The notes beneath the pieces were generated by a model, which saw only the letters and a list, made by a program, of their open reading frames with translations, was not told the DNA's origin and made no database searches. Shown here piece after piece: positions 335-62,428 of a DNA stretch of 64,000 bases. The stretch is from a virus (lineage: Duplodnaviria; Caudoviricetes): the IMG/VR virus record IMGVR_UViG_3300035501_000922. One strand, 5' to 3'. Within the stretch, counting starts at the first letter, position 1. Each line of letters opens with the position of its first letter. A program made the translations under genes and the position numbers.

Positions 335-1170
335 ACGTAGCAGTAAAGTTTGTTGTACATATTAATTTCTTGTAATGCATAATACGTACCAGATTCAGTA
401 TAATAGTATGTCAGCCTTCTATCTGAACTTTTTACAGGAGTTAATTCTTTATTTTTAACGCCTTCATCAATAAATGATTGGGGCACATTATTATCAAGGA
501 TATTACCGTTTTCATCTTTGAGTTCGTACGTTGTTCCATAACCAAAAATCTTAAAAAGATCCTGATAGAATCTGAAGATAATATCTGTATCTTTACCAGC
601 TTTAATAACATTTAAAGCTAGATAATGAAATAATACAGGAGACATAATTTTCATACCGAAAGATATTCTTAAAAGAATCTTAATATGCTGATTGGTGAAT
701 TCAAGACTCTCCAAGTGTTTCTTTTCGTTTTTCATATATTTTTTCTTCTCTTCGCTGTCTCCCTCTATGTCATCAAGATAATTATCTTCGACCATACGAA
801 CTATCTTATCAACCATAGTTGGTGTAAAAATGACCTCATAGATAAAATCTATGAAAGCATTCATGTTTTCTTCGGTAAATCTTTTCTCCTTGTCAAGAGA
901 AAATTTCAACTTCAAATAAGCTGTTGCAAGCTCATTATCAGTATCATAAAGATTCATAAAGAAGTTAGTGTACTTGGTAATAATACCTAACTGATTCTCA
1001 TATGAACCCTTGTTTATAATAAACTTATTATAAACTCTCAGATTTGAATAACCAAATATCTTATCGAAATGACAAACAAAGAGCTTGCCATCAGGTTCGA
1101 CAAATACCTGATTTTTCTTTGGTTTCCAAGTGTTAATCTTGGATGTTTTACGTTGTTTTTCTTCCGCCAT
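335..1170 (-). CDS. Exon 1 of AR9 gp226-like sigma/promoter-specificity subunit of non-virion RNAP
   Basis: Motifs FDKIFG, YDTDNEL, MVEDNY, ESLEFT, MKIMSPVLFHY, YNKL recalled from AR9 gp226; two genes from a chaperonin as gp226/gp228 in AR9; early motif upstream. Confidence 0.7.
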
Positions 1171-1217
1171 GATGTTTACCCCTCCTGATTTATTATGAAA
1201 AGTTGATGTACGAAGAT

Positions 1218-1228
1218 ATAATATATAA
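1218..1228 (-). promoter_or_regulatory. Early-type promoter motif TTATATATTAT
   Basis: Same motif recurs upstream of about 10 genes; resembles phiKZ-group early promoter motifs. Confidence 0.6.
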
Positions 1229-1250
1229 GCAAAAGATCAATTTAATAAAA

Positions 1251-2057
1251 TTACCCTTTCCTTTTTGTACTCTTCCTAGCAACTTTTTTAGTAATTCTAT
1301 GCCCACCAGTAATTTTTACAGTACGATGTACTGACCTATTACCATTCCGTGAAGTAGACGTACTTGCAGATATTCTATGAAGATCTGATAGTCTCTTTTG
1401 TGTTCTCTTTCTTTCAGCATTATTTTTGTTTTCAATATCTCTTTTAAGCTTTCTCTCAGTATTTAATAAATCATGGTCAAACTTAACAGATTTGAAATCG
1501 CTGATATCAGAGAAGAATTTTTCAGGTGTTTTCTTTTTTTGTAAAAGAATACCGAACTTACTTAAATACCTGAATCGACCATCAGATAGAAACTTGCATG
1601 CGAAGTAAATAGACTTATCGTATGAAAGAATCATATCCGAATTGGTCTTCTCAGGCATTACATCCTTGTAATCAGAGTCTAACTTATCATATAAATCTTT
1701 AATCAAGTAATCTTCTTTCTTATATAGGGCGGCATATTTATAAATAAATCCGGGGCTATTAGAAAAGAACTGCATATAATATGCACGTAAGCTATTGGTT
1801 AATTCGAGCTCAGGTTTATCAGTAAAGAGTCTAATTACTACATCATATTCATAACGTCCATCTTTTTGAGATTCGGACGGTACTTTAACATGAATATAGT
1901 AGGATTTTTCAATAACTGTATATCCTGCAATATAAATTTTATTCGATTTAACAAACTCATTATACAATTTTTCATACTTAGTATTTTTTTGCATAGAGTC
2001 CGTTCTACCGAAAGGAGCCCACATAAAATCACTTATAGTCTGGTATTTTTTAGACAT
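1251..2057 (-). CDS. Hypothetical jumbo-phage protein with basic C-terminal tail
   Basis: 268-aa ORF, GAAAGGAG RBS. Confidence 0.75.
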   Translation of the reverse strand: MSKKYQTISDFMWAPFGRTDSMQKNTKYEKLYNEFVKSNKIYIAGYTVIEKSYYIHVKVPSESQKDGRYEYDVVIRLFTDKPELELTNSLRAYYMQFFSNSPGFIYKYAALYKKEDYLIKDLYDKLDSDYKDVMPEKTNSDMILSYDKSIYFACKFLSDGRFRYLSKFGILLQKKKTPEKFFSDISDFKSVKFDHDLLNTERKLKRDIENKNNAERKRTQKRLSDLHRISASTSTSRNGNRSVHRTVKITGGHRITKKVARKSTKRKG

Positions 2058-2078
2058 GATAAATCAGACTCCTTTCAA

Positions 2079-4118
2079 TTAAAAATTATGCTTTTGTGTT
2101 ACAACCATCTGGTTTCCTGTAATAAGGAGAGAAATTAAATCAATTGTAGCTTTAAGAATCTCCTCATCCGTTTGTGCACTGTTAATAACGTTATTGGTAA
2201 ATGACTTAGTAGATACATCAAAAACACAACCATTTGCAACGGAATAATTAATAATAATATCGTGCAAAGATGTTGTAACTGTTTTATCTGTTGAATGAAT
2301 CTTTTCTATAGCATTATTGAATGATTCGTAATCTTTAAAAATCTGCTTAAACAAAGGAAGCTTATTAAAAAGATCTTCAGGAATAGTTCCATCAACTAAC
2401 TCAATTTCAATATCGTTAAATGCATTTGACAATACGGTACGATATACATCTTCAAATCCACCTTGAAGAATTTCGTATAAAGTTCTTGTCACATCATCAT
2501 AGTCACAACAAACTCTTTTATCAATAGCTCTTAAAAGGTCTACATTACAACCATTAACTACGCCATGATTGAATGCGGATGCAGCAGCCTTTATAGCATC
2601 ATCAACCGCATCTTTCAGTAACTTCTGGGAAAGTTCACTATCGGCTCCGACCTCGATAATACCCATTTTTAAGTTAAGTGAATAGAAGCGTTCTTGTGCC
2701 TGACTAACTTCAAGATTAAATGTACCAAGTTTCTGATATTTTGCTTCTGTCTCAGCAAGTGTATCTTTAGCATCTTTATATATAACATCAAATCTCTTTT
2801 CATCATATACAAAGCTGCCAAATACTGATGACTTCAGTCCAATCGAGCAATCCTTAACGTATCCAAGTCGAATCGGATTTTCTATAAGGTCAGGTAATCT
2901 ATAACCTTCAGGGAGCTCTTCTTGACCATAAGTAAAATTACTAGCAGTCAATGAACCAGCATTGTCATGAAGAATCATACACTTTGTACCCTGTATTTCT
3001 CGATTATGAATATTAAAGATTTCCCAAATATATCTACCATTATCGTACTCTTCAAAAATAGTCCTTTCAATAGGTCTATCAATAATAAGAGTATTAGTCA
3101 ATACTGCAAAATCTTCAATCAATCTTCTTGCATGAGCAGAAGTAGACTTATAGGTTGTTAAAACCATATTAATATCCTTATTCTTCTGGTACTCATTGTT
3201 TAAGTCACGAGCAATTACTTGTCTTAAAGCAACCTCATCATATAAAGGTGCTGCAACAATGAGATGACGTCCCATGTACTTACTCTGTTCATTCAGAGGT
3301 TTGAGAATCTTCTCATATGTATCTTTCGTAACTTTTGTAGAGAATATTACAATGTCAGCGTCGGAAAGCTTCATTGTATCATCATCTGAATTTATGTATA
3401 ACTTATCGGTGAGCGTTAAGTCAAACTTATAGCCATCAATAAGTCTTTTCTTTGTAATTCCATCAGGAGCAAGCATACAGCTGATAGCAGGACAACCAAG
3501 TTCCTTATATAAGTCAGATATATATTCTGTTATTTCTTCATCACCATTACTAGAGATATAAACAACATCGTAGATATTTTTATATAAAGTTTCAGGGTCA
3601 TCACTGCGAATTACTCTTACATATTCTTGTAAGTCTTTAACAAGGTCTTCCTTGATTTTATTATACTTCTTGATAATATCTCTAGGAAGGATGGAATGAT
3701 TATTTAACCAATCCCTTCTTTCAATGTAATTCTGATAAATGCTATTTGTTGCAATTACTGCAGATGTTGTTCCATCACCAACTGAATAATTCAAACGTCC
3801 GCATATATCAGCTGCCATGTCGGCAATTGCTTGGTCAACGAGTGTTTCAGACGCATCCATTGAAAGATTTTTCATGATTGTATATCCGTCTTTAGTCACA
3901 TGGCTCCACGGATAATTATAAATTAACGTGGGTGCACCATAAGGACCAAAAGATTTAGATAGAGTTTTCCAAAGAAGATGAAAAACCTTCTGGATTCTCT
4001 CTTCAAACTCTTCCTTGGAAATTACATTAACGGCAGGATCCTTCTTGAATCTTCTACCATCTTCAGAACTCATATCGGTACCGACGTTGAGTTCTTTAAC
4101 TTCACCATTGTTTGCCAT
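2079..4118 (-). CDS. groEL: Phage chaperonin (GroEL-like)
   Basis: SFGPYG, TKDGYT, GDGTTSA ATP-binding motif, DAVDDAIKAA, GVVNG; start moved to MANNG after RBS. Confidence 0.92.
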   Translation of the reverse strand: MANNGEVKELNVGTDMSSEDGRRFKKDPAVNVISKEEFEERIQKVFHLLWKTLSKSFGPYGAPTLIYNYPWSHVTKDGYTIMKNLSMDASETLVDQAIADMAADICGRLNYSVGDGTTSAVIATNSIYQNYIERRDWLNNHSILPRDIIKKYNKIKEDLVKDLQEYVRVIRSDDPETLYKNIYDVVYISSNGDEEITEYISDLYKELGCPAISCMLAPDGITKKRLIDGYKFDLTLTDKLYINSDDDTMKLSDADIVIFSTKVTKDTYEKILKPLNEQSKYMGRHLIVAAPLYDEVALRQVIARDLNNEYQKNKDINMVLTTYKSTSAHARRLIEDFAVLTNTLIIDRPIERTIFEEYDNGRYIWEIFNIHNREIQGTKCMILHDNAGSLTASNFTYGQEELPEGYRLPDLIENPIRLGYVKDCSIGLKSSVFGSFVYDEKRFDVIYKDAKDTLAETEAKYQKLGTFNLEVSQAQERFYSLNLKMGIIEVGADSELSQKLLKDAVDDAIKAAASAFNHGVVNGCNVDLLRAIDKRVCCDYDDVTRTLYEILQGGFEDVYRTVLSNAFNDIEIELVDGTIPEDLFNKLPLFKQIFKDYESFNNAIEKIHSTDKTVTTSLHDIIINYSVANGCVFDVSTKSFTNNVINSAQTDEEILKATIDLISLLITGNQMVVTQKHNF

Positions 4119-4143
4119 AAATAAATCTCCCTTCAAAAAATGT

Positions 4144-4155
4144 TAGAAAACTGTT
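4144..4155 (-). promoter_or_regulatory. Late-type promoter AACA-N6-TA
   Basis: AACAGTTTTCTA upstream of chaperonin; matches AR9 late consensus. Confidence 0.65.
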
Positions 4156-4172
4156 GTGAGCAATATGCTATT

Positions 4173-4883
4173 CTAGTTCAATCGTGTTATGTCGAAGAAA
4201 TCATATTTAAATACATACTCTTTACTAAGCTTTCCAAAATCAACTTTATAATTATCCTTGTCTATCATATTATACCTATAACCATTAGGTATTAATACGG
4301 ATGCACATTTAAGTTTTCCAGTTTCAGCTAAGATATTAATTTTATTAATATCCGAAAAAACAAATGTTGAATCATTCGGAATCTTAGCAATAACACTTCG
4401 AAAATCACCACATACAAATTCAGCTTTCTTTCCGTATAAACGAGTTATATCACTTCTAATAAATGGATTATCATCTTTATCATATATGACAACACGCTTT
4501 ATCAGTTTTTCTTGTGCTACAGCAAGTCTTATAACATCAGCAAAACTTAATTCTGAATTAATAGTAAAAAACTCATCAGTTGCATGTAAATAATTTCTCA
4601 ATAAATCATCATGAAAACCCTCAGGTATTTTTTCAACAGGGATACGAATTGGTAAATCTTTAAAGAAGTTTATATGTCTTCTATTGATGTACCATTCGAA
4701 TAATGATGGGGTATCTAACATTTTTATTTCGGTAGTATCAAAAATATTCTCAATATTATCATTGTCTTTAAGAGCTACGAGTAACACAAACATTGGCATT
4801 TTAATAACATCGTGGTACTCTACAAATAAACACTGAGAATTATAGAATATTGTGTCTTTGGTAACATACACATGCTTTTCCAT
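4173..4883 (-). CDS. Hypothetical protein
   Basis: 236-aa ORF with AAGGAG RBS. Confidence 0.75.
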   Translation of the reverse strand: MEKHVYVTKDTIFYNSQCLFVEYHDVIKMPMFVLLVALKDNDNIENIFDTTEIKMLDTPSLFEWYINRRHINFFKDLPIRIPVEKIPEGFHDDLLRNYLHATDEFFTINSELSFADVIRLAVAQEKLIKRVVIYDKDDNPFIRSDITRLYGKKAEFVCGDFRSVIAKIPNDSTFVFSDINKINILAETGKLKCASVLIPNGYRYNMIDKDNYKVDFGKLSKEYVFKYDFFDITRLN

Positions 4884-4908
4884 AAATATTTCTCCTTTTA
4901 TAAATATA

Positions 4909-4942
4909 AAACAGCGAATTAGATTTCTCTAATTCGCTGTTT
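4909..4942 (-). terminator. Intrinsic terminator
   Basis: 15-bp perfect stem AAACAGCGAATTAGA/TCTAATTCGCTGTTT. Confidence 0.7.
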
Positions 4943-4947
4943 AACCA

Positions 4948-5649
4948 TTATGACATTGGTAAGAAATCACTCATGTCTCCGCTATAAGTATTAGTCGGGG
5001 CAGAGTAGTTATTATTACCAGAGCCATATGATGTATTCTGGTTATTATTCCTATATAATGCTTTATTAGCATTGGAATAATTAATTGAATGTGCAGTCAT
5101 AGGTACAAGGGACTGACAACCTTCAATTTTTTTCATGAAATTGTACAGGTCAGCTTCAACAGGAACTTCAGTTCCAGCACCTGTAATATAGTTATACCCA
5201 GTCATAAAGCTCTTCTTATTAAACTTATGTCTGAGAACATTTTCTTCATTAGTGACACCATCTTCATTTAAAGCCGTTGCAATTTCGAGATAAGCATCTT
5301 TTCCATCATAATAAATAGAAAGAGCTTTACGATTCTCATTATTTCCGATAGAAATTGTAACCTTTGCTTCAGTTGAATTTTCGATGGCAGGTTTAATTTC
5401 CTTATTAAAACCTTCAAACAGTGCAATTGCATTTTCTTCTCGTATTGATGTATTAATCTGCTGTGAAATTTCAGTTGCATATTGTGTTACACCGGTAGAA
5501 TCCTTGCCAACTGCAGGCTGTAGTTTAATTGATAAATTCCTATTCCAACCACCAACACTTAAAAGTGATGTATCGGAATACGATGTGTAAAATGAAGTAT
5601 TAATATTAACCCCATTTCCATTGTTATTCTGTCTTCTCGCGAACATCAT
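4948..5649 (-). CDS. Putative single-stranded DNA-binding protein
   Basis: Beta-rich core, N/S/G-rich linker and acidic-hydrophobic tip (GDMSDFLPMS) like SSB tails. Confidence 0.45.
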   Translation of the reverse strand: MMFARRQNNNGNGVNINTSFYTSYSDTSLLSVGGWNRNLSIKLQPAVGKDSTGVTQYATEISQQINTSIREENAIALFEGFNKEIKPAIENSTEAKVTISIGNNENRKALSIYYDGKDAYLEIATALNEDGVTNEENVLRHKFNKKSFMTGYNYITGAGTEVPVEADLYNFMKKIEGCQSLVPMTAHSINYSNANKALYRNNNQNTSYGSGNNNYSAPTNTYSGDMSDFLPMS

Positions 5650-5696
5650 AGTCAAAAGACTCCTTTCAAAATATAATTGTTTTTTATTACTAAAGA

Positions 5697-6482
5697 TTAT
5701 TCATCTGTAGTTTCAATATTGTTTTCCTCATTATTCTTTTTCCTTTTGGGATAATTCTTTAATATTTTATTTCGTATCTTTGATTCTAATTCAACAAAGA
5801 AGTTTTCATCAATCATTTTAATATAGTCTTGAATAAAATTACCTGTTATTAAGAATTCATCAAATTTCTCTTCTACAAATTCTGTTTCAAGACAATTACT
5901 ATCTGATTTGATTAATTCAAAGAAATCATCAACTGTTAATTCTTGAGATAGAATATAACGAATTACTGAACCTAGATTAGAAAGAATGATTACATCATTT
6001 TCATCATTAATTTCAACTTTGAAATTAAGTGTAGTAACATCCCTTTTCTTAGGTGCAATCTCTTCGTCAACAAGTTCTTCTTTATGCTCATTAATATAAT
6101 TTATTATTAATGTGACAAAGTTCTTTTTTATATTCTTAATGAAGAATCTATATGTTAAAAGAATTAGTTCATGTTGGTCATCATCTTCTGCATCTTCAAT
6201 ATCAGGAAAACCTATAGAGAGATAGGTATCAAAAATATTAATAATAAACTTAATAAATTGGTCATGCATCTGCTCTAAGTTTTCTTGTTCTTCTTCATAT
6301 AAATTCTCTTTACTAAAATCATATTTGGTAATAAATGTTTGTATATAATCTTTTTTTCGATATTCTAGTGGATCTTGAAATTGTGATTCAATTGCTTTTT
6401 CTAATAAATTTAACGGAACCTCTGATAAAAAAAGTTCGTCCTCAATATCAGTAGGCTCGTATTCAAATTCTGTATTCCACAC
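5697..6482 (-). CDS. Hypothetical acidic protein
   Basis: 261-aa ORF, GTG start with GAAAGGAG RBS. Confidence 0.75.
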   Translation of the reverse strand: MWNTEFEYEPTDIEDELFLSEVPLNLLEKAIESQFQDPLEYRKKDYIQTFITKYDFSKENLYEEEQENLEQMHDQFIKFIINIFDTYLSIGFPDIEDAEDDDQHELILLTYRFFIKNIKKNFVTLIINYINEHKEELVDEEIAPKKRDVTTLNFKVEINDENDVIILSNLGSVIRYILSQELTVDDFFELIKSDSNCLETEFVEEKFDEFLITGNFIQDYIKMIDENFFVELESKIRNKILKNYPKRKKNNEENNIETTDE

Positions 6483-6516
6483 AACGTAAAACTCCTTTCA
6501 GATTAAAGTTTCCTCT

Positions 6517-6906
6517 TTATAAAAATTTCGGCTCATTTAAAGCTTTAACTTTAAGTTCACATTGATATTGAAAATCACATTCATTATCGCAACCACATGA
6601 ACTGGTTTCTGTTTTTTCAGGATTTTGTGGACATGTGTTATATAAACCACAGTTAGTATGAGGACAGTAAGACTCACGTATACATTTCTGTGATCCTGCA
6701 TGAAGTTTATGGTTTATATAATCTAGACTTGTAGTCTGGGTAAACTGTGGATATATAAATGTTACTGTTCTGCCACAATTACAACAACGTAATGTATGAC
6801 CTACTACGTTATTAAGATTATCAATAATATCAGTGTAAAGTTTATTTTTACAACCACAGTAATGACATTTCTCAAGCATCGTTTCCGAACGTGCAAATTC
6901 TCTCAT
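6517..6906 (-). CDS. Cys-rich zinc-ribbon protein
   Basis: CHYC...CCNC and further Cys clusters; RBS; GACA-N6-TA upstream. Confidence 0.65.
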   Translation of the reverse strand: MREFARSETMLEKCHYCGCKNKLYTDIIDNLNNVVGHTLRCCNCGRTVTFIYPQFTQTTSLDYINHKLHAGSQKCIRESYCPHTNCGLYNTCPQNPEKTETSSCGCDNECDFQYQCELKVKALNEPKFL

Positions 6907-6974
6907 TTAAAAGCACTCCTTTAAATAAAAATTTTTATTTAATTGTCGTTCTATCCGTAAAATGAGTCTTTTCA

Positions 6975-6986
6975 TTTATATATTAT
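6975..6986 (+). promoter_or_regulatory. Early-type promoter motif
   Basis: TTTATATATTAT heading the LRR region. Confidence 0.6.
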
Positions 6987-7093
6987 TTTCGTGTAATTGA
7001 ATAAGAAATAGAGAAATTCGATTATACATAAATAAAATAGGTCGCCTGAACCTAGTCAAAAGAAAGGCATTTAAAATACTGGGAGGTATTTTT

Positions 7094-7495
7094 ATGGCAA
7101 AATTTATTTGGAACACCTGGAACACCCGAAGAAAATTCAAGTCTGCGGTCAAAAGTGCACGAAAGACCGCACAAAAAAAGAATAAGCATGACGAGGCTAC
7201 AAGATGGCTTGTATTATTTAAACAAGCTGTGGCTGTCGAAGACAAATTTGATGCTGACGATGCATTGGAAAAAGTGTTCGACGATATACTCAAAACACAC
7301 TTTATTTGGTATGAGCTGTATGGATATGAGTTGAGAGAAATGTTTGAATTAATGGATTCATTTTATGAAGTTCTGTTAGAAGCCCACAATGAAGAGGGTT
7401 TCCTCAGTGACAGTGAAATGGAAGACGTACGACAGCTATGGATGGATGACGGAGGACTAAGAATAGCAGCATCCATATTATGCTGTAAGGCATAA
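7094..7495 (+). CDS. Hypothetical early protein
   Basis: 133-aa ORF, GGGAGG RBS. Confidence 0.75.
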   Translation: MAKFIWNTWNTRRKFKSAVKSARKTAQKKNKHDEATRWLVLFKQAVAVEDKFDADDALEKVFDDILKTHFIWYELYGYELREMFELMDSFYEVLLEAHNEEGFLSDSEMEDVRQLWMDDGGLRIAASILCCKA

Positions 7496-7514
7496 TATAA
7501 TGAAAGGAGTAATT

Positions 7515-8189
7515 ATGAAAATCGAAAATAACATTATTATTGACTGTCCCGACAAAACCATCACTGAGGCGGTCATTCCTGACACTATAAGAGCTATCAG
7601 ACCGTATGCATTTTGCAAGTGCGTGTCACTTAAGAAAATCGCGTTTTCAGATAGCGTAAAATTTATTAAAAGTGCCGCATTTATGGGTTGCACTTCACTG
7701 GAGAGTGTGGTGCTACCTAAAAATCTAAAAAGGATTGAATCATACACATTTCAGTACTGCTCATCGCTTGAGAAAGTTATAATATCAAATAGCGTAACAA
7801 GCATTGGTGATTCGGCATTCAATAACTGCTCCTCACTTGAGGAGATCATAATCCCGAATAGTGTAACAAGCATTGGGGAGTTTGCATTTTGCAAGTGTGG
7901 ATCACTTAAGGGAATCACGCTTTCAGATAGCCTTGCAGTAATCGGTGAACACACGTTCAGTGAATGTGTGTCTCTTAAGGGAATCACAATCCCTGATAGC
8001 GTCGAAGTAATAGGCTATGGCGCTTTTTACGAATGTTCATCACTGAAAAGTGTAATAATACCGAGCAGTGTAACAGTCATCAAAAGATTTGCGTTTCACA
8101 AATGCCCGATTGAAAGTGTCGTGGTTCCACGCGATACGATCATCGAATATGGTGCGTTTGATGAACGCACGAAAATAATCAGAGTATAA
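7515..8189 (+). CDS. BspA-type leucine-rich repeat protein 1
   Basis: 23-aa repeats LxxIxIPxSVxxIGxxAFxxCxx; no signal peptide. Confidence 0.92.
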   Translation: MKIENNIIIDCPDKTITEAVIPDTIRAIRPYAFCKCVSLKKIAFSDSVKFIKSAAFMGCTSLESVVLPKNLKRIESYTFQYCSSLEKVIISNSVTSIGDSAFNNCSSLEEIIIPNSVTSIGEFAFCKCGSLKGITLSDSLAVIGEHTFSECVSLKGITIPDSVEVIGYGAFYECSSLKSVIIPSSVTVIKRFAFHKCPIESVVVPRDTIIEYGAFDERTKIIRV

Positions 8190-8195
8190 AAATTA

Positions 8196-8229
8196 AGGTC
8201 GGCGGTTCATCTGCCGACCTTATTTTTTT
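8196..8229 (+). terminator. Intrinsic terminator
   Basis: AAGGTCGGCGG/CTGCCGACCTT stem plus T-run. Confidence 0.8.
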
Positions 8230-8304
8230 CATATATTTATACATTATTTTTTCATATCTCGATGACTACAAATTAAATAAACTAAATATGAAAGGAAGAT
8301 TAAT

Positions 8305-8736
8305 ATGAATGATATTCTAGAGATTAAGTCTGGGTTTCTCATTGCTTGTCATGATAAAGACATTAAGAGTATAGAAATACCCAGTACAGTAAAAGTAATT
8401 TGCAAAGGGGCATTTTTAAATTGTTCATCCCTCGAAAGTGTAACAATACCTCCCTCTGTAAATATTATTGGTGAGCTGGCGTTTTTATTTTGTACGTCCC
8501 TCTCAAGCATTGTAATACCTGGTTCAGTAAGAAGAATCAGTAACGGTGCATTTTCCAAATGTATATCCCTTAAATCTGTTGAAATCTGTAGTGGAGTAAC
8601 AAGTATCGGTATACGTGCATTTATTGGTTGTACATCATTATCATCAATTGTAATACCCGAAAGTGTTACAAGTATCGGCGAACACGCATTTGACAAGAAT
8701 ACTGTACAGTATAGATATTTTAGTACATTACGATAG
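8305..8736 (+). CDS. BspA-type LRR protein 2
   Basis: 23-aa LRR_5 repeats; own early motif at 8236-8247. Confidence 0.9.
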   Translation: MNDILEIKSGFLIACHDKDIKSIEIPSTVKVICKGAFLNCSSLESVTIPPSVNIIGELAFLFCTSLSSIVIPGSVRRISNGAFSKCISLKSVEICSGVTSIGIRAFIGCTSLSSIVIPESVTSIGEHAFDKNTVQYRYFSTLR

Positions 8737-8739
8737 ACA

Positions 8740-8774
8740 AAAAAGACTGTGATTTCGTATCACAGTCTTTTTTT
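8740..8774 (+). terminator. Intrinsic terminator
   Basis: AAAAAAGACTGTGAT/ATCACAGTCTTTTTT. Confidence 0.8.
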
Positions 8775-8820
8775 ATCCGTAAAATGGGTCTTTATATTTA
8801 TACATTATTTATGTGTAAAA

Positions 8821-8864
8821 CAATAACTGAGTCAGCTGTAAAGACCTTAAAACAGAGAAGGAGT
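8821..8864 (+). repeat. LRR-array leader repeat copy 1 (divergent)
   Basis: GTCAGCTG-TAAAGACCTTAAAACAGAGAAGGAGT. Confidence 0.8.
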
Positions 8865-8869
8865 ATATT

Positions 8870-9397
8870 ATGAATACAACAGTAGAAAATATGAAAATTG
8901 AAGAAGGCGTTCTTGTTGAATGCCTTGATAAAACCGTTACAGAGGTTTCAATACCTGAAAATGTAAAGGAAATTGGTGCCAATGCATTTTATGGCTGTGA
9001 CAGGTTAAAAACTGTCATAATACCCGAGGGTATAACAGTAATTGGTAGAGGGGCATTCTCGCGTTGCAGTTCTCTCTCAGAGGTTTCAATTCCTAGTAGC
9101 GTTGAATATATTGGTGTAAGTGCATTCATGCGTTGTGGTAACTTAAAATCTATTACAATACCTAAAGGAGTAATAAGTATCGGACCTGCTGCATTCTTAC
9201 ATTGTGACTCCCTTTCAGAGGTTTTAATACCTGAGGGGGTTGAGTATATTGGAACTAATGCATTCTTAAGTTGTCCGAACCTCAAGACAGTAAGAATACC
9301 CAAGACGGTAACGAAACTTGGTATGGCTGTATTTAATAATGGTACCAAAATCATTTGTTGCCATGAGTTTGATAGCTTTGGCCATCCTAAGATATAA
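8870..9397 (+). CDS. BspA-type LRR protein 3
   Basis: IEEGVLVEC N-cap plus LRR_5 repeats. Confidence 0.92.
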   Translation: MNTTVENMKIEEGVLVECLDKTVTEVSIPENVKEIGANAFYGCDRLKTVIIPEGITVIGRGAFSRCSSLSEVSIPSSVEYIGVSAFMRCGNLKSITIPKGVISIGPAAFLHCDSLSEVLIPEGVEYIGTNAFLSCPNLKTVRIPKTVTKLGMAVFNNGTKIICCHEFDSFGHPKI

Positions 9398-9440
9398 TAA
9401 TTAAGTCAGCTGGTTAAAGACTTTAAAACAGAGAAGGAGT
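9395..9440 (+). repeat. LRR-array leader repeat copy 2
   Basis: TAATAATTAAGTCAGCTGGTTAAAGACTTTAAAACAGAGAAGGAGT. Confidence 0.9.
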
Positions 9441-9446
9441 TACAAT

Positions 9447-10040
9447 ATGAGTGAAATTCTGTGCATTGAGAATGGTGTTCTCATCAAATGCCTAGACAAA
9501 ACCGTTACGGAAATAGTCATTCCTGAAGGGGTGACTAGAATTGGTATCGCGGCATTCGAGGACTGCGATAGGTTAACAAATGTCACAATGCCTAAGAGTA
9601 TGACAGTGATTGATGGATGGGCATTTAGGTATTGCAGTTCTCTCTCAGAGATTTCAATACCTAAAAAGGTGACAGAGATTCGTGATGCTGCCTTCTATGG
9701 CTGCGAATCTTTGACAAAGATATCAATACCTAAAGGGGTGGCAGTGATTTCTCGCAACACATTTTATGGGTGCATTAGGTTAAAAACTGTCGTAATACCT
9801 AAGAGTGTGAGATTAATTGGCGGAAGTGCATTCGAACATTGTAGTTCTCTTAGTTCCGTCAGAATACCTGAAGGGGTTGAGGGTATTGGGATTCGTGCAT
9901 TTTTAGATTGCCCAAATATCAAATCAATTAAAATACCTAATAGTGTAAAGACACTTGGAGGAGATGCATTTAATAGAGGCACGAAAGTCATTCGTGTGCA
10001 TGAATTTGATGGCATTGGATGGCAAAAAATGCTGGATTAA
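9447..10040 (+). CDS. BspA-type LRR protein 4
   Basis: IENGVLIKC N-cap plus LRR_5 repeats. Confidence 0.92.
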   Translation: MSEILCIENGVLIKCLDKTVTEIVIPEGVTRIGIAAFEDCDRLTNVTMPKSMTVIDGWAFRYCSSLSEISIPKKVTEIRDAAFYGCESLTKISIPKGVAVISRNTFYGCIRLKTVVIPKSVRLIGGSAFEHCSSLSSVRIPEGVEGIGIRAFLDCPNIKSIKIPNSVKTLGGDAFNRGTKVIRVHEFDGIGWQKMLD

Positions 10041-10044
10041 GATA

Positions 10045-10092
10045 TAATAATCAAGTCAGCTGGTTAAAGACTTTAAAACAGAGAAATGGAGT
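10045..10092 (+). repeat. LRR-array leader repeat copy 3
   Basis: TAATAATCAAGTCAGCTGGTTAAAGACTTTAAAACAGAGAAATGGAGT. Confidence 0.9.
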
Positions 10093-10098
10093 TTTATT

Positions 10099-10872
10099 AT
10101 GAATACATTAGAAATCTTGAAAATTGAAAACGGTGTTCTCACCAGATGCCTCGACAAAAACGTTACCGAAATCACAATACCCAAGGGGGTAACGGAAATC
10201 GGTACAAAAGCGTTCTATAACTGTGAACAGCTTGTATCAGTCGATATACCCGAAGGAGTGAAAAAGATCGGTTACAAAGCGTTTCGAAATTGCGATTCGC
10301 TAATAACGGTCGTATTACCCAAGGGGGTAACCGAGATAGGTAAAGATGCATTCATGGCTTGCACGAGCCTTGAATCTGTATCAATACCTGATACTGTTAC
10401 AAAAATCAACAGCTATGCTTTCTGCGCTTGTAAAGCGCTAAAGTCGATTAAAATCCCAAACGGGGTAAAAGAAATCGGCAATAAAGCATTCTGTGATTGC
10501 AATTCAATACTGTCGGTCGAAATACCCGACAGTGTGATTAAAATCGGAAACTATGCGTTCTGCTGGTGCTGTTCACTTGAAAAAGTGGACATTCCTAAAG
10601 GAATAACATCTATAAATTCCGGATTATTCGCAAAGTGTCACTCCCTTCAGTCTGTTACCATCCCCGAATGGATAAAAACGATTTCCATGGGTGCATTTTA
10701 CTATTGCACGTCGCTTACAGAAGTCAGAATTTCTGACGGTGTGAGAGGAATCGTCAGAAACGCTTTCATAGGTTGCGAGTCTCTAACGGAAGTCTCAATA
10801 CCTAAAAGTGTAACGAGACTTGATGAGTGGGCCTTCGACGAGGAGAAGGTCGTACTGCAAAGGGAAGTATGA
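10099..10872 (+). CDS. BspA-type LRR protein 5
   Basis: IENGVLTRC N-cap plus LRR_5 repeats. Confidence 0.92.
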   Translation: MNTLEILKIENGVLTRCLDKNVTEITIPKGVTEIGTKAFYNCEQLVSVDIPEGVKKIGYKAFRNCDSLITVVLPKGVTEIGKDAFMACTSLESVSIPDTVTKINSYAFCACKALKSIKIPNGVKEIGNKAFCDCNSILSVEIPDSVIKIGNYAFCWCCSLEKVDIPKGITSINSGLFAKCHSLQSVTIPEWIKTISMGAFYYCTSLTEVRISDGVRGIVRNAFIGCESLTEVSIPKSVTRLDEWAFDEEKVVLQREV

Positions 10873-10883
10873 AATCAGAGGAG

Positions 10884-10929
10884 TAATAATCAAGTCAGCT
10901 GGTTAAAGACTTTAAAACAGAGAAGGAGT
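10884..10929 (+). repeat. LRR-array leader repeat copy 4
   Basis: TAATAATCAAGTCAGCTGGTTAAAGACTTTAAAACAGAGAAGGAGT. Confidence 0.9.
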
Positions 10930-10933
10930 TATT

Positions 10934-12038: not shown

Positions 12039-12078
12039 AGAAGACTGCGATATGAAAACGCAGTCTTCTTTTTTTTTT
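12039..12078. terminator. Bidirectional intrinsic terminator
   Basis: AGAAGACTGCG/CGCAGTCTTCT between convergent genes. Confidence 0.8.
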
Positions 12079-15695: not shown

Positions 15696-15707
15696 AACAA
15701 GATAATA
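15696..15707 (+). promoter_or_regulatory. Late-type promoter AACA-N6-TA
   Basis: AACAAGATAATA. Confidence 0.65.
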
Positions 15708-22410: not shown

Positions 22411-22497
22411 TGTAAATTATGATTCTAACAGTTGAAATACACTGTTAGAATCTATTTTATTAATCACAATTGTTTAATTTGAAAGGAGTCGTTTATT

Positions 22498-45649: not shown

Positions 45650-45688
45650 AATATGGTGAATGGCAATATTGCCATTCACCATATTTTT
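45649..45688. terminator. Bidirectional intrinsic terminator
   Basis: AAATATGGTGAATGGC/GCCATTCACCATATTT. Confidence 0.8.
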
Positions 45689-49922: not shown

Positions 49923-50043
49923 CCCCTTTCATATCATTAAAATATTTTAATAAATTGTTTTTTGCCCAAAATAGGACATATCCTTTCGTTAAGGATATGT
50001 CCTATTATTTGAATTTATAGTGTAAATTTATTTTTTAATAATA

Positions 50044-54155: not shown

Positions 54156-54962
54156 TTACTTTTTTTGAAATTTAGACATTTTTGAAAAAAATTTAGTTCC
54201 ACTGTTTGCTGATTTTGATACCAATTTTTGCATTGTTCCAAGAATTTGAGATATCTGCCTTTCCGCATCGGCGGCTAAATTGGATAATGCAAGTTTTTTA
54301 GGACTATCCGCATATTTTTTTTCTCTTTCATGTAATTTTTTTTTATATCTTTCTTCTTTATTATCCTTAATGACTTTTTTTCTTAGCTCATTGCCAGTTG
54401 TTTCAACGATATTAAAATTATCTTCTATGCTTTTTTGTATCTCCTTACCAATAACAAGCGATGCACCTGCCTTGATTACAGCCCCACCATATTTATTTAC
54501 TATTTTAGCACACCTATCTACAAATGCAGCAATTAAGTGATCATCTATATGTGTGCCTTTGGATACTAGTTGTATCATTTTTCTTCCTTTGAGAAGTTCC
54601 TCATGTATTTCAGCATTAATTTTCCTTGTATCTTCGTCAAATCTAATAATTGCATTAGAACTTTGAAAATACTCTTCCGCTGTAATATTTTCACGAAAGC
54701 CGAAAGTATCTCTAACTGCTGTAATGAAATTTGTAACCACTCTTTTTGTGGCTTGTACAATTCTATTAATTAAATCGAGGAATTTATTTCCAGATGTTTT
54801 TTCTGCACCTTTAACTACCTCTTCGTCAGCTTCAGTAAAAATAGATAAAGATAATATTGCAGATTCATTACAAAAATCATGTACTGCTCTGTCTATATCT
54901 AAATCCGTTTCTGCATACATTATATATGCCTCTCTTTCAAATGGTGTAGCAAAACTCTGCAT
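54156..54962 (-). CDS. Putative internal head protein
   Basis: FTE|A plus amphipathic helix; late promoter 55003-55014. Confidence 0.6.
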   Translation of the reverse strand: MQSFATPFEREAYIMYAETDLDIDRAVHDFCNESAILSLSIFTEADEEVVKGAEKTSGNKFLDLINRIVQATKRVVTNFITAVRDTFGFRENITAEEYFQSSNAIIRFDEDTRKINAEIHEELLKGRKMIQLVSKGTHIDDHLIAAFVDRCAKIVNKYGGAVIKAGASLVIGKEIQKSIEDNFNIVETTGNELRKKVIKDNKEERYKKKLHEREKKYADSPKKLALSNLAADAERQISQILGTMQKLVSKSANSGTKFFSKMSKFQKK

Positions 54963-55068
54963 AAATTCTCAGCTCCTTTCATTATAGTATAAATGATTCA
55001 TTTATAGTTATGTTTTTCAAAAATATTGATACACACAGTAAGAAAAACTGTGTGTATCAAATTATTTT

Positions 55069-58833: not shown

Positions 58834-58953
58834 GTTCTAAACCTCCTTTATAAAATAAAATATTAATTAATGTCTGTTAATTAATAATATGTTTTTCATA
58901 GGTTTTTATAGTGTGAAGCACATAAAAATAATAAATTTTAGGGGGTAATTAAT

Positions 58954-59331
58954 ATGCCAACAGTAATAGTTGTTTTAGTATGTATTTTAGTTTTATCTTG
59001 TATTGCTTTATTTTGGGTAGTATTTTTCCAAGGTGCTAACGAAAGAGAAATTATAAAAACTGAGAGAATAACAGACTTAGTTTATGTTGCTAATGTAAGA
59101 CGTGAAAAAATTGCAAATAGTGACAAGTATATGCATTACACCAGAGTTGAATATAAAAATGCCATGTATACACTAAAAGGTATTGTTAATTATAATATTG
59201 CGTATAGACGCCAGTTAAGGAATGTGCATGCATTAATTGATAAAACCGTGTATAGTGATGGAATTGTTGAGTATCAAGTAGTTAAATTACTTCTTATTGA
59301 AGTTACGAAATCACAGGAGGTTAAAAAATGA
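58954..59331 (+). CDS. Membrane-anchored hypothetical protein
   Basis: N-terminal hydrophobic helix. Confidence 0.7.
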   Translation: MPTVIVVLVCILVLSCIALFWVVFFQGANEREIIKTERITDLVYVANVRREKIANSDKYMHYTRVEYKNAMYTLKGIVNYNIAYRRQLRNVHALIDKTVYSDGIVEYQVVKLLLIEVTKSQEVKK

Positions 59332-60185
59332 GCTATGCAGACAAATTATTTGTTAATATGTGTAATGATATATTAACAAATGGTACAACGACAGAAGGTC
59401 AAGCTATACGTCCACATTGGGAAGATGGAACACCTGCTTATACAATAAAGAAGTTTGGTGTTGTGAATCGTTATGATTTACGAAAAGAATTTCCTGCAAT
59501 TACATTAAGACGTACTGCTATTAAAAGTGCCGTTGATGAAATCCTTTGGATTTATCAGAGAAAATCTAATAACGTCCATGATTTAAGATCTCATATATGG
59601 GATGAATGGGCTGATGAAAATGGTTCAATTGGTAAAGCATATGGTTATCAAGTTGGCTTAAAAAACATATACAGAAAAATTGATAACGAATTTACATATG
59701 TTGACCAGATGGAATCTGTATTGTATGATTTACAAAATGCTCCATTTGGAAGAAGAATCATGACGAATCTTATGAATTTTAATGATTTACATGAAATGAA
59801 TCTTCAACCGTGTGCATGGTCATGTACATTCAATGTTACAAGTGAAGATGGTAACTTAGTTTTAAACATGATTCTCAATCAAAGGTCGCAAGATGTTCTT
59901 GCGGCTAACAACTGGAATGTTGTACAGTATGCAGCATTATTAATGATGGTAGCACAAGTTTCTAAGATGATTCCCGGAGAACTTGTACATGTTATTGCTG
60001 ATGCGCATATATACGACAGACATGTACCATTAATAAAAGAACTAATTGGTAGACCTCAGTATAAAGCACCAACTGTTTTAATTGATACTGGGGTACAAAA
60101 CTTTAATGACTTCACCCCGGAGTCATTTTTAGTTACTAATTATGAATATGGTGAGCAACTTGAAAATATTCCAATTGCAATTTGA
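59328..60185 (+). CDS. thyA: Thymidylate synthase
   Basis: EILW, IWDEWAD, GKAYG, LQPC, NQRSQD, NWNVVQY, DAHIYDRH. Confidence 0.96.
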   Translation: MSYADKLFVNMCNDILTNGTTTEGQAIRPHWEDGTPAYTIKKFGVVNRYDLRKEFPAITLRRTAIKSAVDEILWIYQRKSNNVHDLRSHIWDEWADENGSIGKAYGYQVGLKNIYRKIDNEFTYVDQMESVLYDLQNAPFGRRIMTNLMNFNDLHEMNLQPCAWSCTFNVTSEDGNLVLNMILNQRSQDVLAANNWNVVQYAALLMMVAQVSKMIPGELVHVIADAHIYDRHVPLIKELIGRPQYKAPTVLIDTGVQNFNDFTPESFLVTNYEYGEQLENIPIAI

Positions 60186-60200
60186 ATGGAGGAGTTTAAA

Positions 60201-60797
60201 ATGAAATTAATTGCTTGTGTAGATTTAGACTTTAATATAGGTTATCAGAATCAGTTACTGTTTCATATACCAGAAGATATGAAACGATTTCGTGATTATA
60301 CAAATGGAAATATAGTTGTTATGGGTGGTAAGACATTTGAAAGTATTGGTCATCCTTTAAAGAATAGAACCAATATAATCATTTCTCATGAACCATCCAA
60401 ATATCAATTAGATGTAATTAATGATGTAATGCCCATGACAATGGAAACTTTCATTAATGAATATTATTTTTCTCGCTCTTCATTTACAAAAGAAAAAATA
60501 TATGTAATTGGTGGTGCTGAGATTTATAATTCATTATTACCAATGTGTGATACTCTTATATTAACTAGGGTAAATACAGTTGCAGAAAACACAGATAGTT
60601 ATATTAAGAATCTGGTTTACGACTATGGTACTGATATATCTAGCTCTAATATGAAGTTAACATACCATGATTCTGATAAAACCATTGCGTATGAATTAAT
60701 AGAATCAGAACTAGGTAGATACTCTATTGATGCTAATGAATATTATGATTTTCTTACGTATAAACTAATGGATTATAACATAAAAGATGCAAATTAA
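60201..60797 (+). CDS. folA: Dihydrofolate reductase
   Basis: LIAC, IG..NQL, EDMKRF, VMGGKTFESIGHPLKNR, VIGGAEIY. Confidence 0.94.
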   Translation: MKLIACVDLDFNIGYQNQLLFHIPEDMKRFRDYTNGNIVVMGGKTFESIGHPLKNRTNIIISHEPSKYQLDVINDVMPMTMETFINEYYFSRSSFTKEKIYVIGGAEIYNSLLPMCDTLILTRVNTVAENTDSYIKNLVYDYGTDISSSNMKLTYHDSDKTIAYELIESELGRYSIDANEYYDFLTYKLMDYNIKDAN

Positions 60798-60841: not shown

Positions 60842-61774
60842 TTACTTAATAGCATTATAAAGTTTAGCAATAAACTTTTCACCAGCAATGCCATTTTCTT
60901 TATATCCCCATTTAGCAAGAAGAGCATTTACTGCTTTCTCTGTTGCACTACCAAATGTAGCAGTGTCATCAACAGTTACAGAAATCAGTTTCTTAGCCTT
61001 AGCTATAAGAAGTAACTTCTTAAGAGCTAATACACCATTATCTTTGCTACCTTTTTTAAATCCAGTAGTATCCAATGTTGTCTTAGCAGTCGCTGTAGTA
61101 GTTTTTGTTGTAGTGGTTGCTGTTGTGGTTTTTGTCGTTGTAGTAGTCGTAGTAGTTTTTGTATAACCATTTAATCCGGCATTCTTAATAATCGTAGGAT
61201 AATCTGTAGTTGTTTTATCAAGATCAACACTACCTGTACATCCACTAACTTTACCTGTAAATGAATACTGGTGAATACCATAATCAATGCTAGGTGTTTT
61301 AGTTGTATTAGCACACCAAACATTATATTTCTTACGAACAGTAGAAGATATCTTACTATTTAAGAATGATTCATAGCTATATAATGCAATATAGTAACCA
61401 GCAGACTCAACGGTTGACATAAATGTCGTAACAATTGAATCTATTGTGGTCTTATTGAGTGAATTCTGTGTTGAATCCTCAATATCAAATGCTAAAGGCA
61501 TATCAAACTTCTTGCCCTTGATTACACTAAGGAACGCCTGAGCTTCAAGCTTTGCTTCAGCAGAAGTCTTTGCATAACTATACCAATATGCACCAACATG
61601 CAAACCAGCAGCTACAGCATTTTTATAGTTTGTTTCAAACTTAGAATCTTTCTGGGATGTGGACTTACCATAACCAGCACGTATCATAACGAAAGATTTC
61701 TCTTTCTTAACACTGGTCATATTTACGGTACCATTATGTACTGAAACATCAATACCAAAATATGTTGTTGCCAT
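60842..61774 (-). CDS. GH25 lysozyme (endolysin) with Thr-rich linker and PG-binding domain
   Basis: GIDVS, IRAGYG, GAYWYSYA, FDIED, HQYS, VDLD. Confidence 0.93.
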   Translation of the reverse strand: MATTYFGIDVSVHNGTVNMTSVKKEKSFVMIRAGYGKSTSQKDSKFETNYKNAVAAGLHVGAYWYSYAKTSAEAKLEAQAFLSVIKGKKFDMPLAFDIEDSTQNSLNKTTIDSIVTTFMSTVESAGYYIALYSYESFLNSKISSTVRKKYNVWCANTTKTPSIDYGIHQYSFTGKVSGCTGSVDLDKTTTDYPTIIKNAGLNGYTKTTTTTTTTKTTTATTTTKTTTATAKTTLDTTGFKKGSKDNGVLALKKLLLIAKAKKLISVTVDDTATFGSATEKAVNALLAKWGYKENGIAGEKFIAKLYNAIK

Positions 61775-61777
61775 AAA

Positions 61778-61957
61778 TTAACCCTCCATTTCCTTGTAAT
61801 AACTTACAACCCTCTTAATTTCATCAGCATTAGATTTCTGAATCTCAGATGCTTCCGAAACAGGAATGGTATAAACGGTACTAACTTCTTCAGAAGTTGC
61901 ACCATGAGCGAATGATTTGATGATTTCTCTCAGTGTTTCATTACCAATAGAACTCAT
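61778..61957 (-). CDS. Small protein upstream of lysozyme
   Basis: AAAGGAG RBS; late promoter 61983-61994. Confidence 0.65.
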   Translation of the reverse strand: MSSIGNETLREIIKSFAHGATSEEVSTVYTIPVSEASEIQKSNADEIKRVVSYYKEMEG

Positions 61958-62041
61958 TGTATACACTCCTTTCATAGTTGATTATTTCTATGTTTTAATA
62001 TAAAAATATAGGATGTAACTTTTTAGTTACATCCTATATCG

Positions 62042-62311
62042 TCATCTGAATTTAATTCTGATGTAAATCCCTCTACATGTCTGATATGTATCAATCAATA
62101 CATCCTTAACATTGTCTGGTACATCAAGTTCATTGGCAATTATATTATTAATCTGTGATAGATTATTAGTCTTTACTAGTAGTTCACCGTTGTTTTCGCT
62201 CTGTCGAATCTCATAGCCGTTATCGGTTAATAAAGAAATTATCATATCCATGATATTATCTTTATACTTTTTACATTCAACAAGTGCTGATATTATTTTA
62301 CCGTCGCTCAT
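62042..62311 (-). CDS. Hypothetical protein
   Basis: GAGGGG RBS; early-like motif at about 62332-62342. Confidence 0.65.
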   Translation of the reverse strand: MSDGKIISALVECKKYKDNIMDMIISLLTDNGYEIRQSENNGELLVKTNNLSQINNIIANELDVPDNVKDVLIDTYQTCRGIYIRIKFR

Positions 62312-62428
62312 AATTTCCCCTCACTTTCTGTAATAATATATTTAAAATAGAGTTATAAATAATATAGAAATAAAGTCTGGTAATTATTCATAAAAAACAA
62401 GTTTATAATACGATAAAGAGGTGATATA

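Follow-up and report, generated by a model that had tools for sequence, protein, structure and literature searches.

The 64,000-nucleotide stretch of phage DNA recorded in IMG/VR as IMGVR_UViG_3300035501_000922, analyzed here over its whole length and called the window, raises the question of how a phage can carry the late promoter of bacteriophage AR9 together with the genes for thymidylate synthesis. To our knowledge, no multisubunit RNA polymerase other than the non-virion enzyme of AR9 reads its promoter from the template strand and depends on uracil for this recognition. The AR9 late promoter is 5'-AACA-N6-TW (PMC5449584, PMC9209446). Uracil DNA has been reviewed for phages AR9, BpSp, phiR1-37, and S6, and the uracil requirement was proposed as a way for the phage to tell its own DNA from that of the host (PMC7598289). 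The sequence-only reading of the window had suggested an AR9-lineage phage with thymine DNA and a thymine-tolerant specificity subunit, and every sequence-level test that we ran (homology, motif, gene content, pocket, and position −11) supports it. We estimate a probability of about 70% that the window belongs to an AR9-lineage phage which keeps the two-polymerase, two-promoter programme, most likely with thymine DNA.

The window is phage DNA of 32% GC, of which 11.9% is noncoding. Its ribosome-binding sites are of the Firmicute type, and it encodes six tRNAs and an anaerobic ribonucleotide reductase. It has no counterpart in the cultured-phage collection, and a megablast search with its first 20 kb returned a single 63-nt match, to phage phiR1-37, inside an intron. 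An exact-match search of IMG/VR with its first 48 nt gave no hit. A tblastn search against the whole AR9 genome identified homologues of gp226, gp227, and gp228 (GroEL), with local synteny, as well as of the DNA polymerase gp152, gp153, gp154, gp165, the SbcD protein gp002, gp214, gp215, gp218, gp220, and a lysin. In the phage collection, the gp214-like virion protein matches AR9-type phages only. More than 300 gp226 homologues were found, and their contigs reach ~290 kb. Two relatives, with 40–60% protein identity to the window phage, were used for comparison: G001, an IMG/VR contig of 158 kb and 26% GC, and G003:C1, a 258-kb contig binned with a Lachnospiraceae metagenome-assembled genome (MAG) and treated as a complete relative. 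The source of the window is probably a ~250-kb jumbo phage of a large uncultured gut and rumen clade, the nearest cultured relatives of which would be AR9/PBS1-type phages. Our literature search found no account of such a clade.

G003:C1, although labelled as an uncultured Lachnospiraceae MAG, is syntenic with the window and apparently represents the complete genome of a jumbo phage, the final 60 nt of which are repeated at another place in the contig. A second relative is binned in a Treponemataceae MAG, and host assignment by binning is weak.

The sequence-only reading had listed 15 exact AACA-N6-TA sites upstream of genes, and all 15 were found at the same coordinates and on the same strands. 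They are given below as predicted late promoters or, where weaker, as late-type sites; A-tract denotes adenines at −14 to −12.

4144 to 4155, minus strand: weaker late-type site, no A-tract, before the chaperonin gene
15696 to 15707, plus strand: late promoter before the gene for a gp153-like virion protein
18599 to 18610, minus strand: late promoter before the gene for a gp165-like virion/head-tail joining protein
23456 to 23467, plus strand: weaker late-type site, no A-tract, before the HNH endonuclease gene in the beta-prime intron
31152 to 31163, plus strand: late promoter before the fibre-like gene 31194-34157
35165 to 35176, plus strand: late promoter directly 3' of terminator 35124-35155
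36243 to 36254, plus strand: late promoter before the CHAP-domain lysin gene, directly 3' of terminator 36190-36221
36997 to 37008, plus strand: weaker, doubtful late-type site, no A-tract, 99 nt before tRNA-Met, no ribosome-binding site
37257 to 37268, plus strand: late promoter before 37303-37584, directly 3' of terminator 37200-37232
38694 to 38705, plus strand: late promoter before 38730-39500, directly 3' of terminator 38641-38682
49948 to 49959, minus strand: late promoter before operon 45688-49922
55003 to 55014, minus strand: late promoter before 54156-54962 and the genes downstream
58882 to 58893, minus strand: late promoter before the gene for a gp214-like minor virion protein
61983 to 61994, minus strand: late promoter before a 65-aa open reading frame (ORF) and the GH25 lysin gene
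62396 to 62407, plus strand: late promoter before 62429-63712

The loose 12-mer AACA-N6-TA is depleted in the window as a whole, where the two strands together hold 52 copies and dinucleotide shuffles give 84.5 ± 8.8. Noncoding DNA holds 21 of the 52 copies, and 15 of these 21 lie no more than 80 nt upstream of a gene on the same strand. On the sense strand upstream of genes, 15 copies compare with an expected 2.85 ± 1.69; a second count gave 13 against 2.44, a number that none of the 400 shuffles reached. For AAAACA-N6-TA, the corresponding values are 12 and 0.41 ± 0.61. Only a spacer of 6 with the tail TA gives the noncoding excess. It disappears with a spacer of 4, 5, 7, or 8, with other tails, and with single-base substitutions from −13 to −8. 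The predicted 5' untranslated regions, measured from the TA to the start codon, are 19–49 nt long and contain a GAAAGGAG-type ribosome-binding site. The genes behind the late sites mostly encode virion and lysis proteins, including gp153-, gp165-, gp214-, and fibre-like proteins and the CHAP and GH25 lysins. Intrinsic terminators are enriched at 31–40 kb (20 versus 4.3), and four of the late sites in this region are located directly 3' of one. Copies of the motif at 4910 (plus strand) and 4941 (minus strand) sit in a terminator stem, and those at 13 and 33 (both minus strand) are inside an intron; these were rejected as promoters and taken as chance occurrences.

That the motif is a signal for the host polymerase or a post-transcriptional signal, instead of a promoter for the non-virion polymerase, is very improbable. 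In favour of this alternative, both the motif and the genome are AT-rich; against it, the spacer and tail are strict, the motif lies on the sense strand at the above distances before start codons and directly 3' of terminators, and it shares its core with the late promoter of AR9 as defined by experiment. Furthermore, the motif is kept in genomes of 26–35% GC at 40–60% protein identity, and the cognate specificity subunit and beta-prime subunit are encoded in the window. Host sigma-70 promoters were rejected as an alternative, since sigma-70-like sites occur at the chance level (45 versus 43.7).

The motif is also present in both relatives. G001 contains 42 copies of AAAACA-N6-TA, 22 of them in the 10% of its DNA that is noncoding, and nearly all of these are followed by a ribosome-binding site and a start codon; its gp214 orthologue is preceded by the motif at 58445 (minus strand). 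In G003:C1, AAAACA-N6-TA occurs 27 times upstream of genes, against 1.36 expected. The genome-wide ratio of observed to expected AACA-N6-TA 12-mers is 0.60–0.64 in the window, G001, and G003:C1, and 0.84 in AR9. The under-representation is consistent with the avoidance of spurious promoters, and codon usage may contribute to it. Taken together, the sequence data support a role of AACA-N6-TA as an AR9-type late promoter that is conserved in two distant relatives.

The same pipeline was run on AR9, the window, G001, and G003:C1. Adenine occupies positions −14, −13, and −12 in 10, 12, and 12 of 14 sites in the window, in 18, 22, and 20 of 27 sites in G001, and in 23, 29, and 32 of 40 sites in G003:C1. 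Position +2 is adenine in 12 of 14, 26 of 27, and 34 of 40 sites, respectively, whereas none of these four positions rises much above background in AR9. The late consensus of the clade, AAAAACA-N6-TAA, is longer than that of AR9.

Position −11 had been described as relaxed, which holds for C and G. Upstream of genes, [CG]ACA-N6-TA is enriched in the window (10 versus 1.5, 0 of 400 shuffles), in G001 (8 versus 2.9, 0 of 400 shuffles), and in G003:C1 (13 versus 6.9, 7 of 300 shuffles), but not in AR9 (1 versus 4.25). T at −11 does not follow this pattern in the window, where TACA-N6-TA is unenriched (3 versus 2.2), nor in G001 (7 versus 4.5), while it is enriched in G003:C1 (15 versus 8.3; 7 of 300 shuffles). 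In the window, the variants are supported for CACA and GACA and not for TACA. Four variant sites are:

22465 to 22476, plus strand: CACA-N6-TA, 22 nt before the beta-prime start codon
37876 to 37887, plus strand: GACA-N6-TA, 27 nt before the deoxyuridine triphosphatase (dUTPase) start codon
15611 to 15622, minus strand: GACA-N6-TA before DNA polymerase exon 1
58919 to 58930, plus strand: CACA-N6-TA before the operon of 58954, thyA, and the dihydrofolate reductase (DHFR) gene

For several early genes to which variant late motifs had been assigned, namely the specificity subunit and beta-prime genes and the nrdD operon, the promoters are of the AR9 early type. The 35 annotated early promoters of AR9 were extracted and share the consensus AAATATATATTAT-N4-5-TG. 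TTATAyATyAT, with a TG or GT behind it at the distance seen in AR9, occurs at 11 places in the window, and the motif is enriched both there (6 versus 0.34) and in G003:C1 (13 versus 0.8). The predicted early promoters are:

1218 to 1228, minus strand: TTATATATTAT, before the specificity subunit gene; the annotation of AR9 puts an early promoter at the equivalent position before g226
6976 to 6986, plus strand: before 7094 and the leucine-rich repeat (LRR) gene array
8237 to 8247, plus strand: before LRR array genes
8798 to 8808, plus strand: before LRR array genes
18622 to 18632, plus strand: before 18678
22348 to 22358, plus strand: before the beta-prime gene; AR9 g154 likewise has one
26371 to 26381, plus strand: before 26399 and the nrdD operon
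42351 to 42361, plus strand: before 42380
16731, 39549, and 41257: further copies

The early promoters account better than the variant late motifs for several early genes, and the beta-prime and DNA polymerase genes are among those having both early- and late-type sites. The AR9 type of early promoter (TTATAyATTAT) is conserved in the window phage.

The LRR array, at 7500-12031, consists of six tandem genes with BspA-type LRR_5 repeats (Pfam E 1e-33 to 1e-131) behind AR9-type early promoters. A near-identical leader (..AAGTCAGCTGGTTAAAGACTTTAAAACAGAGAAGGAG..) precedes four of the six genes. G001 and G003:C1 lack the array at the corresponding position beside the DNA polymerase gene.

The late promoters would be read with the help of a specificity subunit of the gp226 type. 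ORF 335-1170, which had been taken for a gp226 homologue, is one by pairwise similarity, synteny, profile, and fold, but it is only the first exon of three. The gene, its introns, and its neighbours are arranged as follows:

335 to 1170, minus strand: exon 1 of the gp226-type subunit (N-terminal domain), 30% identical to AR9 gp226 residues 21-156, E 8e-10
1 to 334, extending 9 nt past the window start, minus strand: group I intron 1 (Rfam RF00028, 97 bits, at 42-344)
L004 10106-10300, outside the window: exon 2
L004 10301-11811, outside the window: intron 2 with an HNH ORF
L004 11812-12541, outside the window: exon 3
1251 to 2057, minus strand: gp227 homologue, 28% identical over its full length, E 1e-14
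2079 to 4118, minus strand: GroEL-like chaperonin, gp228 homologue, E 1e-33, Pfam Cpn60_TCP1
22498 to 26297, plus strand: C-terminal subunit of non-virion RNA polymerase beta-prime, gp154 homologue, exons 22498-23340 and 25080-26297

L004 is a JGI metagenome contig that is 100% identical to window positions 1-10095 and adds 2,951 nt beyond the window start. The splice sites, including the one after the GT at 335, were set against P0001, an uninterrupted relative of 79% identity. They follow group I rules, with U before the 5' and G before the 3' splice site, and the spliced product is a single ORF of 587 aa. When a profile of 30 clade members was compared with all PDB sequences, the sole match was AR9 gp226 (7s01_A, E 9.2e-20), and it spans both domains (residues 17-178 and 176-462). 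The fold was tested on an AlphaFold2 (AF2) model of P0001 (pLDDT 78), which is 79% identical to the window protein, rather than on the window protein itself. The best PDB matches of this model are 7s01_A (E 3.7e-14) and 7um0_A, with E from 1e-13 to 4e-14 and a probability of 1.0; the next fold family is phiKZ gp68 (9rjs_B, E 7e-3). Searches of the phage collection by tblastn with exons 1 and 3 gave no match at thresholds of 1e-5 and 1e-3, and the gp226 homology therefore needs pairwise or profile methods to be detected. As in AR9, the gene adjoins the gp227 and GroEL homologues and follows an early promoter, and the beta and beta-prime genes of the genome are split. The homology indicates that the product is a gp226-type promoter-specificity subunit, with putative roles in binding the four-subunit polymerase core and in promoter-specific initiation; of the core, the window encodes the beta-prime C-terminal homologue alone.

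Intron 2, in L004, contains the HNH ORF, a complete group I core, and an extra partial copy of the 3' half of the core at 11432-11493. The beta-prime intron carries an HNH ORF at 23476-24477 and a group I core at 24733-25041. Pairwise identity among the three cores (intron 1, intron 2, and the beta-prime intron) is 78–88%. The annotation of Listeria phage LPJP1 (L014) splits the gp226 homologue into two neighbouring ORFs (13-1161 and 1240-1635), which suggests an unannotated intron or a frameshift.

In AR9, the uracil at −10 contacts two residues of helix 2.1bis, V206 and I207, as well as R363 of the beta-N subunit; the substitution V206G admits thymine, and Y210 stacks on the G at −9 (PMC9209446). 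At −11, thymine is excluded by the packing of the DNA backbone, and V206G gives no relief there (PMC9209446). V206, I207, and Y210 were reported to be absolutely conserved in uracil-DNA phages (PMC9209446). We compared six cultured homologues (AR9, BpSp, S6, SA1, phiR1-37, and LPJP1) with 121 clade members; MAFFT and hidden Markov model alignments concur and are gapless between the NKLY and TD anchors. The helix is encoded in exon 2, just outside the window, and the window-phage residues were read from L004.

D204: D in 6 of 6 cultured homologues; N in 120 of 121 clade members
V206: V in 6 of 6 cultured; P in 65, L in 23, T in 19, I in 5, S in 3, V in 2, M in 2, G in 1, and K in 1 of the clade
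I207: I in 6 of 6 cultured; I in 103, M in 9, and L in 9 of the clade
W208: W in 6 of 6 cultured; F in 103 and Y in 18 of the clade
Y210: Y or F in the cultured; Q in 120 of the clade
S245: S or A in the cultured; G in all 121 of the clade
Y263: Y or F in the cultured; Y in 120 of the clade

The signature D-x-V-I-W-x-Y/F of the cultured AR9-type subunits thus stands against N-x-P/L/T-I-F/Y-x-Q in the clade. In the window phage, V206 is replaced by P, W208 by F, and Y210 by Q, while I207 is kept, so that the uracil-pocket signature is absent. In the alignment of the spliced subunit to gp226, another residue stands in place of the valine by which AR9 keeps thymine out. The residue corresponding to R363 of beta-N is kept in G003:C1. 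As judged from these sequences, the pocket of the clade is rebuilt and not merely widened.

The gene content of the window bears on the base composition of the DNA. The sequence-only reading had named intact dUTPase, ThyA, and DHFR genes, and their motifs, catalytic residues, and Pfam matches bear this out. Together with the anaerobic ribonucleotide reductase, they are encoded at:

26849 to 31076, plus strand: NrdD in three pieces and its activase NrdG, anaerobic ribonucleotide reductase
37914 to 38636, plus strand: trimeric dUTPase, Pfam 1.4e-14, with five motifs including AGYD, PRSG, GVIDSDYY, and GGFGST in the PDB alignment
59328 to 60185, plus strand: thymidylate synthase ThyA, Pfam 6e-78, TIGR03284 136 bits against a cut-off of 108
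60186 to 60797, plus strand: DHFR, Pfam 1.3e-34, directly 3' of the ThyA gene

The dUTPase scores below the NCBIfam equivalog cut-offs owing to a 70-aa N-terminal extension and an insertion. Its assignment as a deoxycytidine triphosphate (dCTP) deaminase was rejected, as its PDB matches are dUTPases without exception and it has the fifth motif, which is specific to dUTPases. By analogy with the pathways of T4 and E. coli, NrdD/NrdG, dUTPase, ThyA, and DHFR make up a complete route to deoxythymidine monophosphate (dTMP). ThyA is also encoded on the phage contigs of G001, G003:C1, and G004:C100, and G003:C1 has a dUTPase and a DHFR gene adjoining that of ThyA. None of the three enzymes was found in the five cultured gp226-bearing genomes searched (AR9, BpSp, LPJP1, S6, and phiR1-37). 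The human-faecal phage contigs with ThyA of 65–67% identity gave no match to the gp214-like virion protein and were excluded from the evidence for conservation within the clade.

The nrdD region, 26849-30521, has an intein-splicing domain in the middle one of the three pieces. Its gaps (27830-28102, 29015-29454, and 30112-30521) have a structured appearance, but in the whole window the Rfam threshold for group I is reached by two introns only.

ThyA-family enzymes include deoxyuridine and deoxycytidine monophosphate hydroxymethylases, and jumbo phages often modify their DNA, which raises the alternative of a hypermodified base derived from thymidine or 5-hydroxymethyl-deoxyuridine, with the ThyA homologue acting as, or alongside, a hydroxymethylase. 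We consider this unlikely. The best structural relatives of the protein are all true thymidylate synthases, the closest being B. subtilis ThyA (1b02, E 2e-55), and the catalytic Cys, RSxD, N, and DxHxY are kept. Its TIGR03284 score is above the equivalog cut-off, and the DHFR gene lies directly downstream; from the known mechanism, DHFR would be needed by thymidylate synthase chemistry and not by hydroxymethylases. A hydroxymethylase function of ThyA was rejected as unlikely on these three grounds. Moreover, no kinase, glycosyl transferase, or aminoacyl transferase modules are among the Pfam matches of the window.

The retention of uracil DNA as in AR9 also has a low probability. The thymidylate genes would then be auxiliary, early-only, or inhibited in replication, and the non-virion polymerase would read template uracils. 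This alternative agrees with the identity of the core AACA-N6-TA to that of AR9, with the conservation of I207 and the beta-N arginine, and with the fact that all previously known gp226 homologues come from phages with shown or presumed uracil DNA. However, a phage-encoded dUTPase would destroy the dUTP pool; phage PBS2, for comparison, inhibits the host dUTPase. The valine called absolutely conserved in uracil-DNA phages is lost, and the three thymidylate genes, lacking in all five cultured genomes, are conserved in the new clade. In the deoxyuridine pathway of PBS1, dCTP deaminase works with dTMP phosphatase (PMC12697855). Neither the window nor L004, G001, or G003:C1 gave a homologue of the AR9 dTMP phosphatase Dtm (gp151) at E ≤ 0.1, a homologue of the phiR1-37 dTTP pyrophosphatase Dtt not having been searched for, and no homologue of AR9 Ugi was found in the same four sequences. 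Both syntenic slots, the one beside gp220 and that of Dtm beside the DNA polymerase, are empty. A cytidine deaminase (CDA)-fold deaminase is present in AR9, S6, and phiR1-37 (3 of 3 tested), and no CDA-fold or dCTP deaminase was found among the ORFs of the window or in G001. G003:C1 encodes a 139-aa CDA-fold deaminase that is weakly similar to AR9 gp221 (E 1e-4), which the uracil alternative can also claim.

Several points weigh against thymine DNA read by a thymine-tolerant polymerase, the reading that we prefer. The own-genome data for the window phage amount to 67 kb, comprising the 64 kb of the window and 3 kb beyond it. The sequences show homology, the enrichment and conservation of the motif, and gene content; we infer the base composition of the DNA, the start of late transcripts at the A of TA, and which polymerase reads which motif. 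The side chains P, L, T, and I at position 206 are not smaller than valine, so the V206G rule does not apply, and sequence alone cannot show thymine tolerance. The AF2 model of P0001 has a pLDDT of 52–70 precisely in the pocket region and contains no DNA, and the attempt to derive thymine tolerance from it was abandoned. TACA is unenriched in the window. The closest relatives of ThyA are on other gut phage contigs, at 65–67% identity, which marks it as a mobile gene. Ugi-like inhibitors are small and fast-evolving and could be missed. The deaminase of G003:C1 weakly resembles the PBS1/AR9 dCTP deaminase; together with dUTPase and ThyA it fits the dTMP route as well, and it decides nothing.

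In the reading that we prefer, the phage has kept the two-polymerase programme of AR9. The early genes, including those for the sigma-like specificity subunit, beta-prime, and nrdD and the LRR array, would be read by the virion polymerase from TTATAyATTAT-N4-5-TG. The phage would make thymine DNA through NrdD/NrdG, dUTPase, ThyA, and DHFR, no PBS1-type dTMP-removing enzyme having been found in the sequences searched. The non-virion polymerase with its gp226-type subunit would read the virion and lysis genes from AAAAACA-N6-TAA, starting at the A of TA. On thymine DNA, the gp226 homologue must accept template-strand thymine at −10 and usually also at −11. Indirectly, the thymidylate genes and the altered pocket suggest that this phage no longer needs deoxyuridine at the template positions −11 and −10 of its late promoter. 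The pocket helix is rebuilt from D-x-V-I-W-x-Y/F to N-x-P-I-F-x-Q, with −11 now tolerant of C and G. Speculatively, the A-tract at −14 to −12 and the A at +2 may have taken over from uracil as a source of specificity. The broader proposal is evenly balanced in our judgement: that a large natural clade reads the template-strand AACA-N6-TA on thymine DNA with a rebuilt pocket (N-x-P-I-F-x-Q), a longer signal and stronger motif avoidance replacing uracil discrimination, and represents the counterpart, possibly the ancestral state, of the uracil-specific AR9 enzyme.

The system resembles the non-virion RNA polymerase of AR9/PBS1 in its specificity subunit, which is homologous in sequence, fold, and synteny, in the homologous split beta-prime, in the core late promoter and its spacing before virion and lysis genes, in the early promoter type, and in the intron-rich polymerase genes. 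Unlike AR9, the window phage encodes ThyA, DHFR, and dUTPase, with no Dtm or Ugi found, and the consensus of its clade adds A at −14 to −12 and at +2 and tolerates C or G at −11. The specificity subunit exceeds AR9 gp226 by ~120 residues and has an insertion ahead of the NKLY helix. Position 206 is changed, as it is in the engineered V206G variant, and the expected phenotype, by analogy, is the reading of a thymine template; unlike in V206G, the natural residues are P, L, T, or I and their neighbours co-vary, and simple enlargement of the cavity cannot be the mechanism. The non-virion polymerase of phiKZ also has a fifth subunit of related fold, gp68, and works on thymine DNA. However, gp68 has no sequence similarity to the clade subunits and uses a different promoter, and the clade is much closer to AR9 in sequence. 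Phages of the phiKZ type shield their DNA in a proteinaceous nucleus. The enzyme set for anaerobic dTMP synthesis is the same as in the T4-type supply (nrdD/nrdG, dUTPase/dCTPase, td, and frd), but it sits in an AR9-lineage genome the cultured relatives of which lack ThyA, DHFR, and dUTPase.

The window has further features. The family B DNA polymerase gene at 12077-15593, a gp152 homologue, is split by an HNH/HTH ORF at 13957-14817 and a 356-nt spacer. An unannotated stretch of Yersinia phage phiR1-37 matches positions 14942-15004 at 87.7%, and the two probably have an intron core in common. Just upstream of beta-prime, 21556-22410 encodes a 284-aa protein with a weak PARG/macro-domain match (TIGR02452 E 2e-9; PARG_cat_microb E 6e-3). 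Between tRNA-Leu and tRNA-Gln, a GC-rich, hairpin-rich stretch of 272 nt at 35843-36114 has no ORF and contains a strong terminator at 36041-36079.

Reviews divide the jumbo phages that encode RNA polymerases into nucleus-forming phages with thymine DNA and AR9-like phages with uracil DNA. A clade that combines the AR9 machinery and promoter with thymidylate synthesis would break this division. It provides natural sequence variants for tracing the gain or loss of uracil specificity, and it opens to test the idea that the mark of self has passed from uracil to a longer consensus. The clade also documents a wide distribution of AR9-like phages in the anaerobic communities of gut and rumen.

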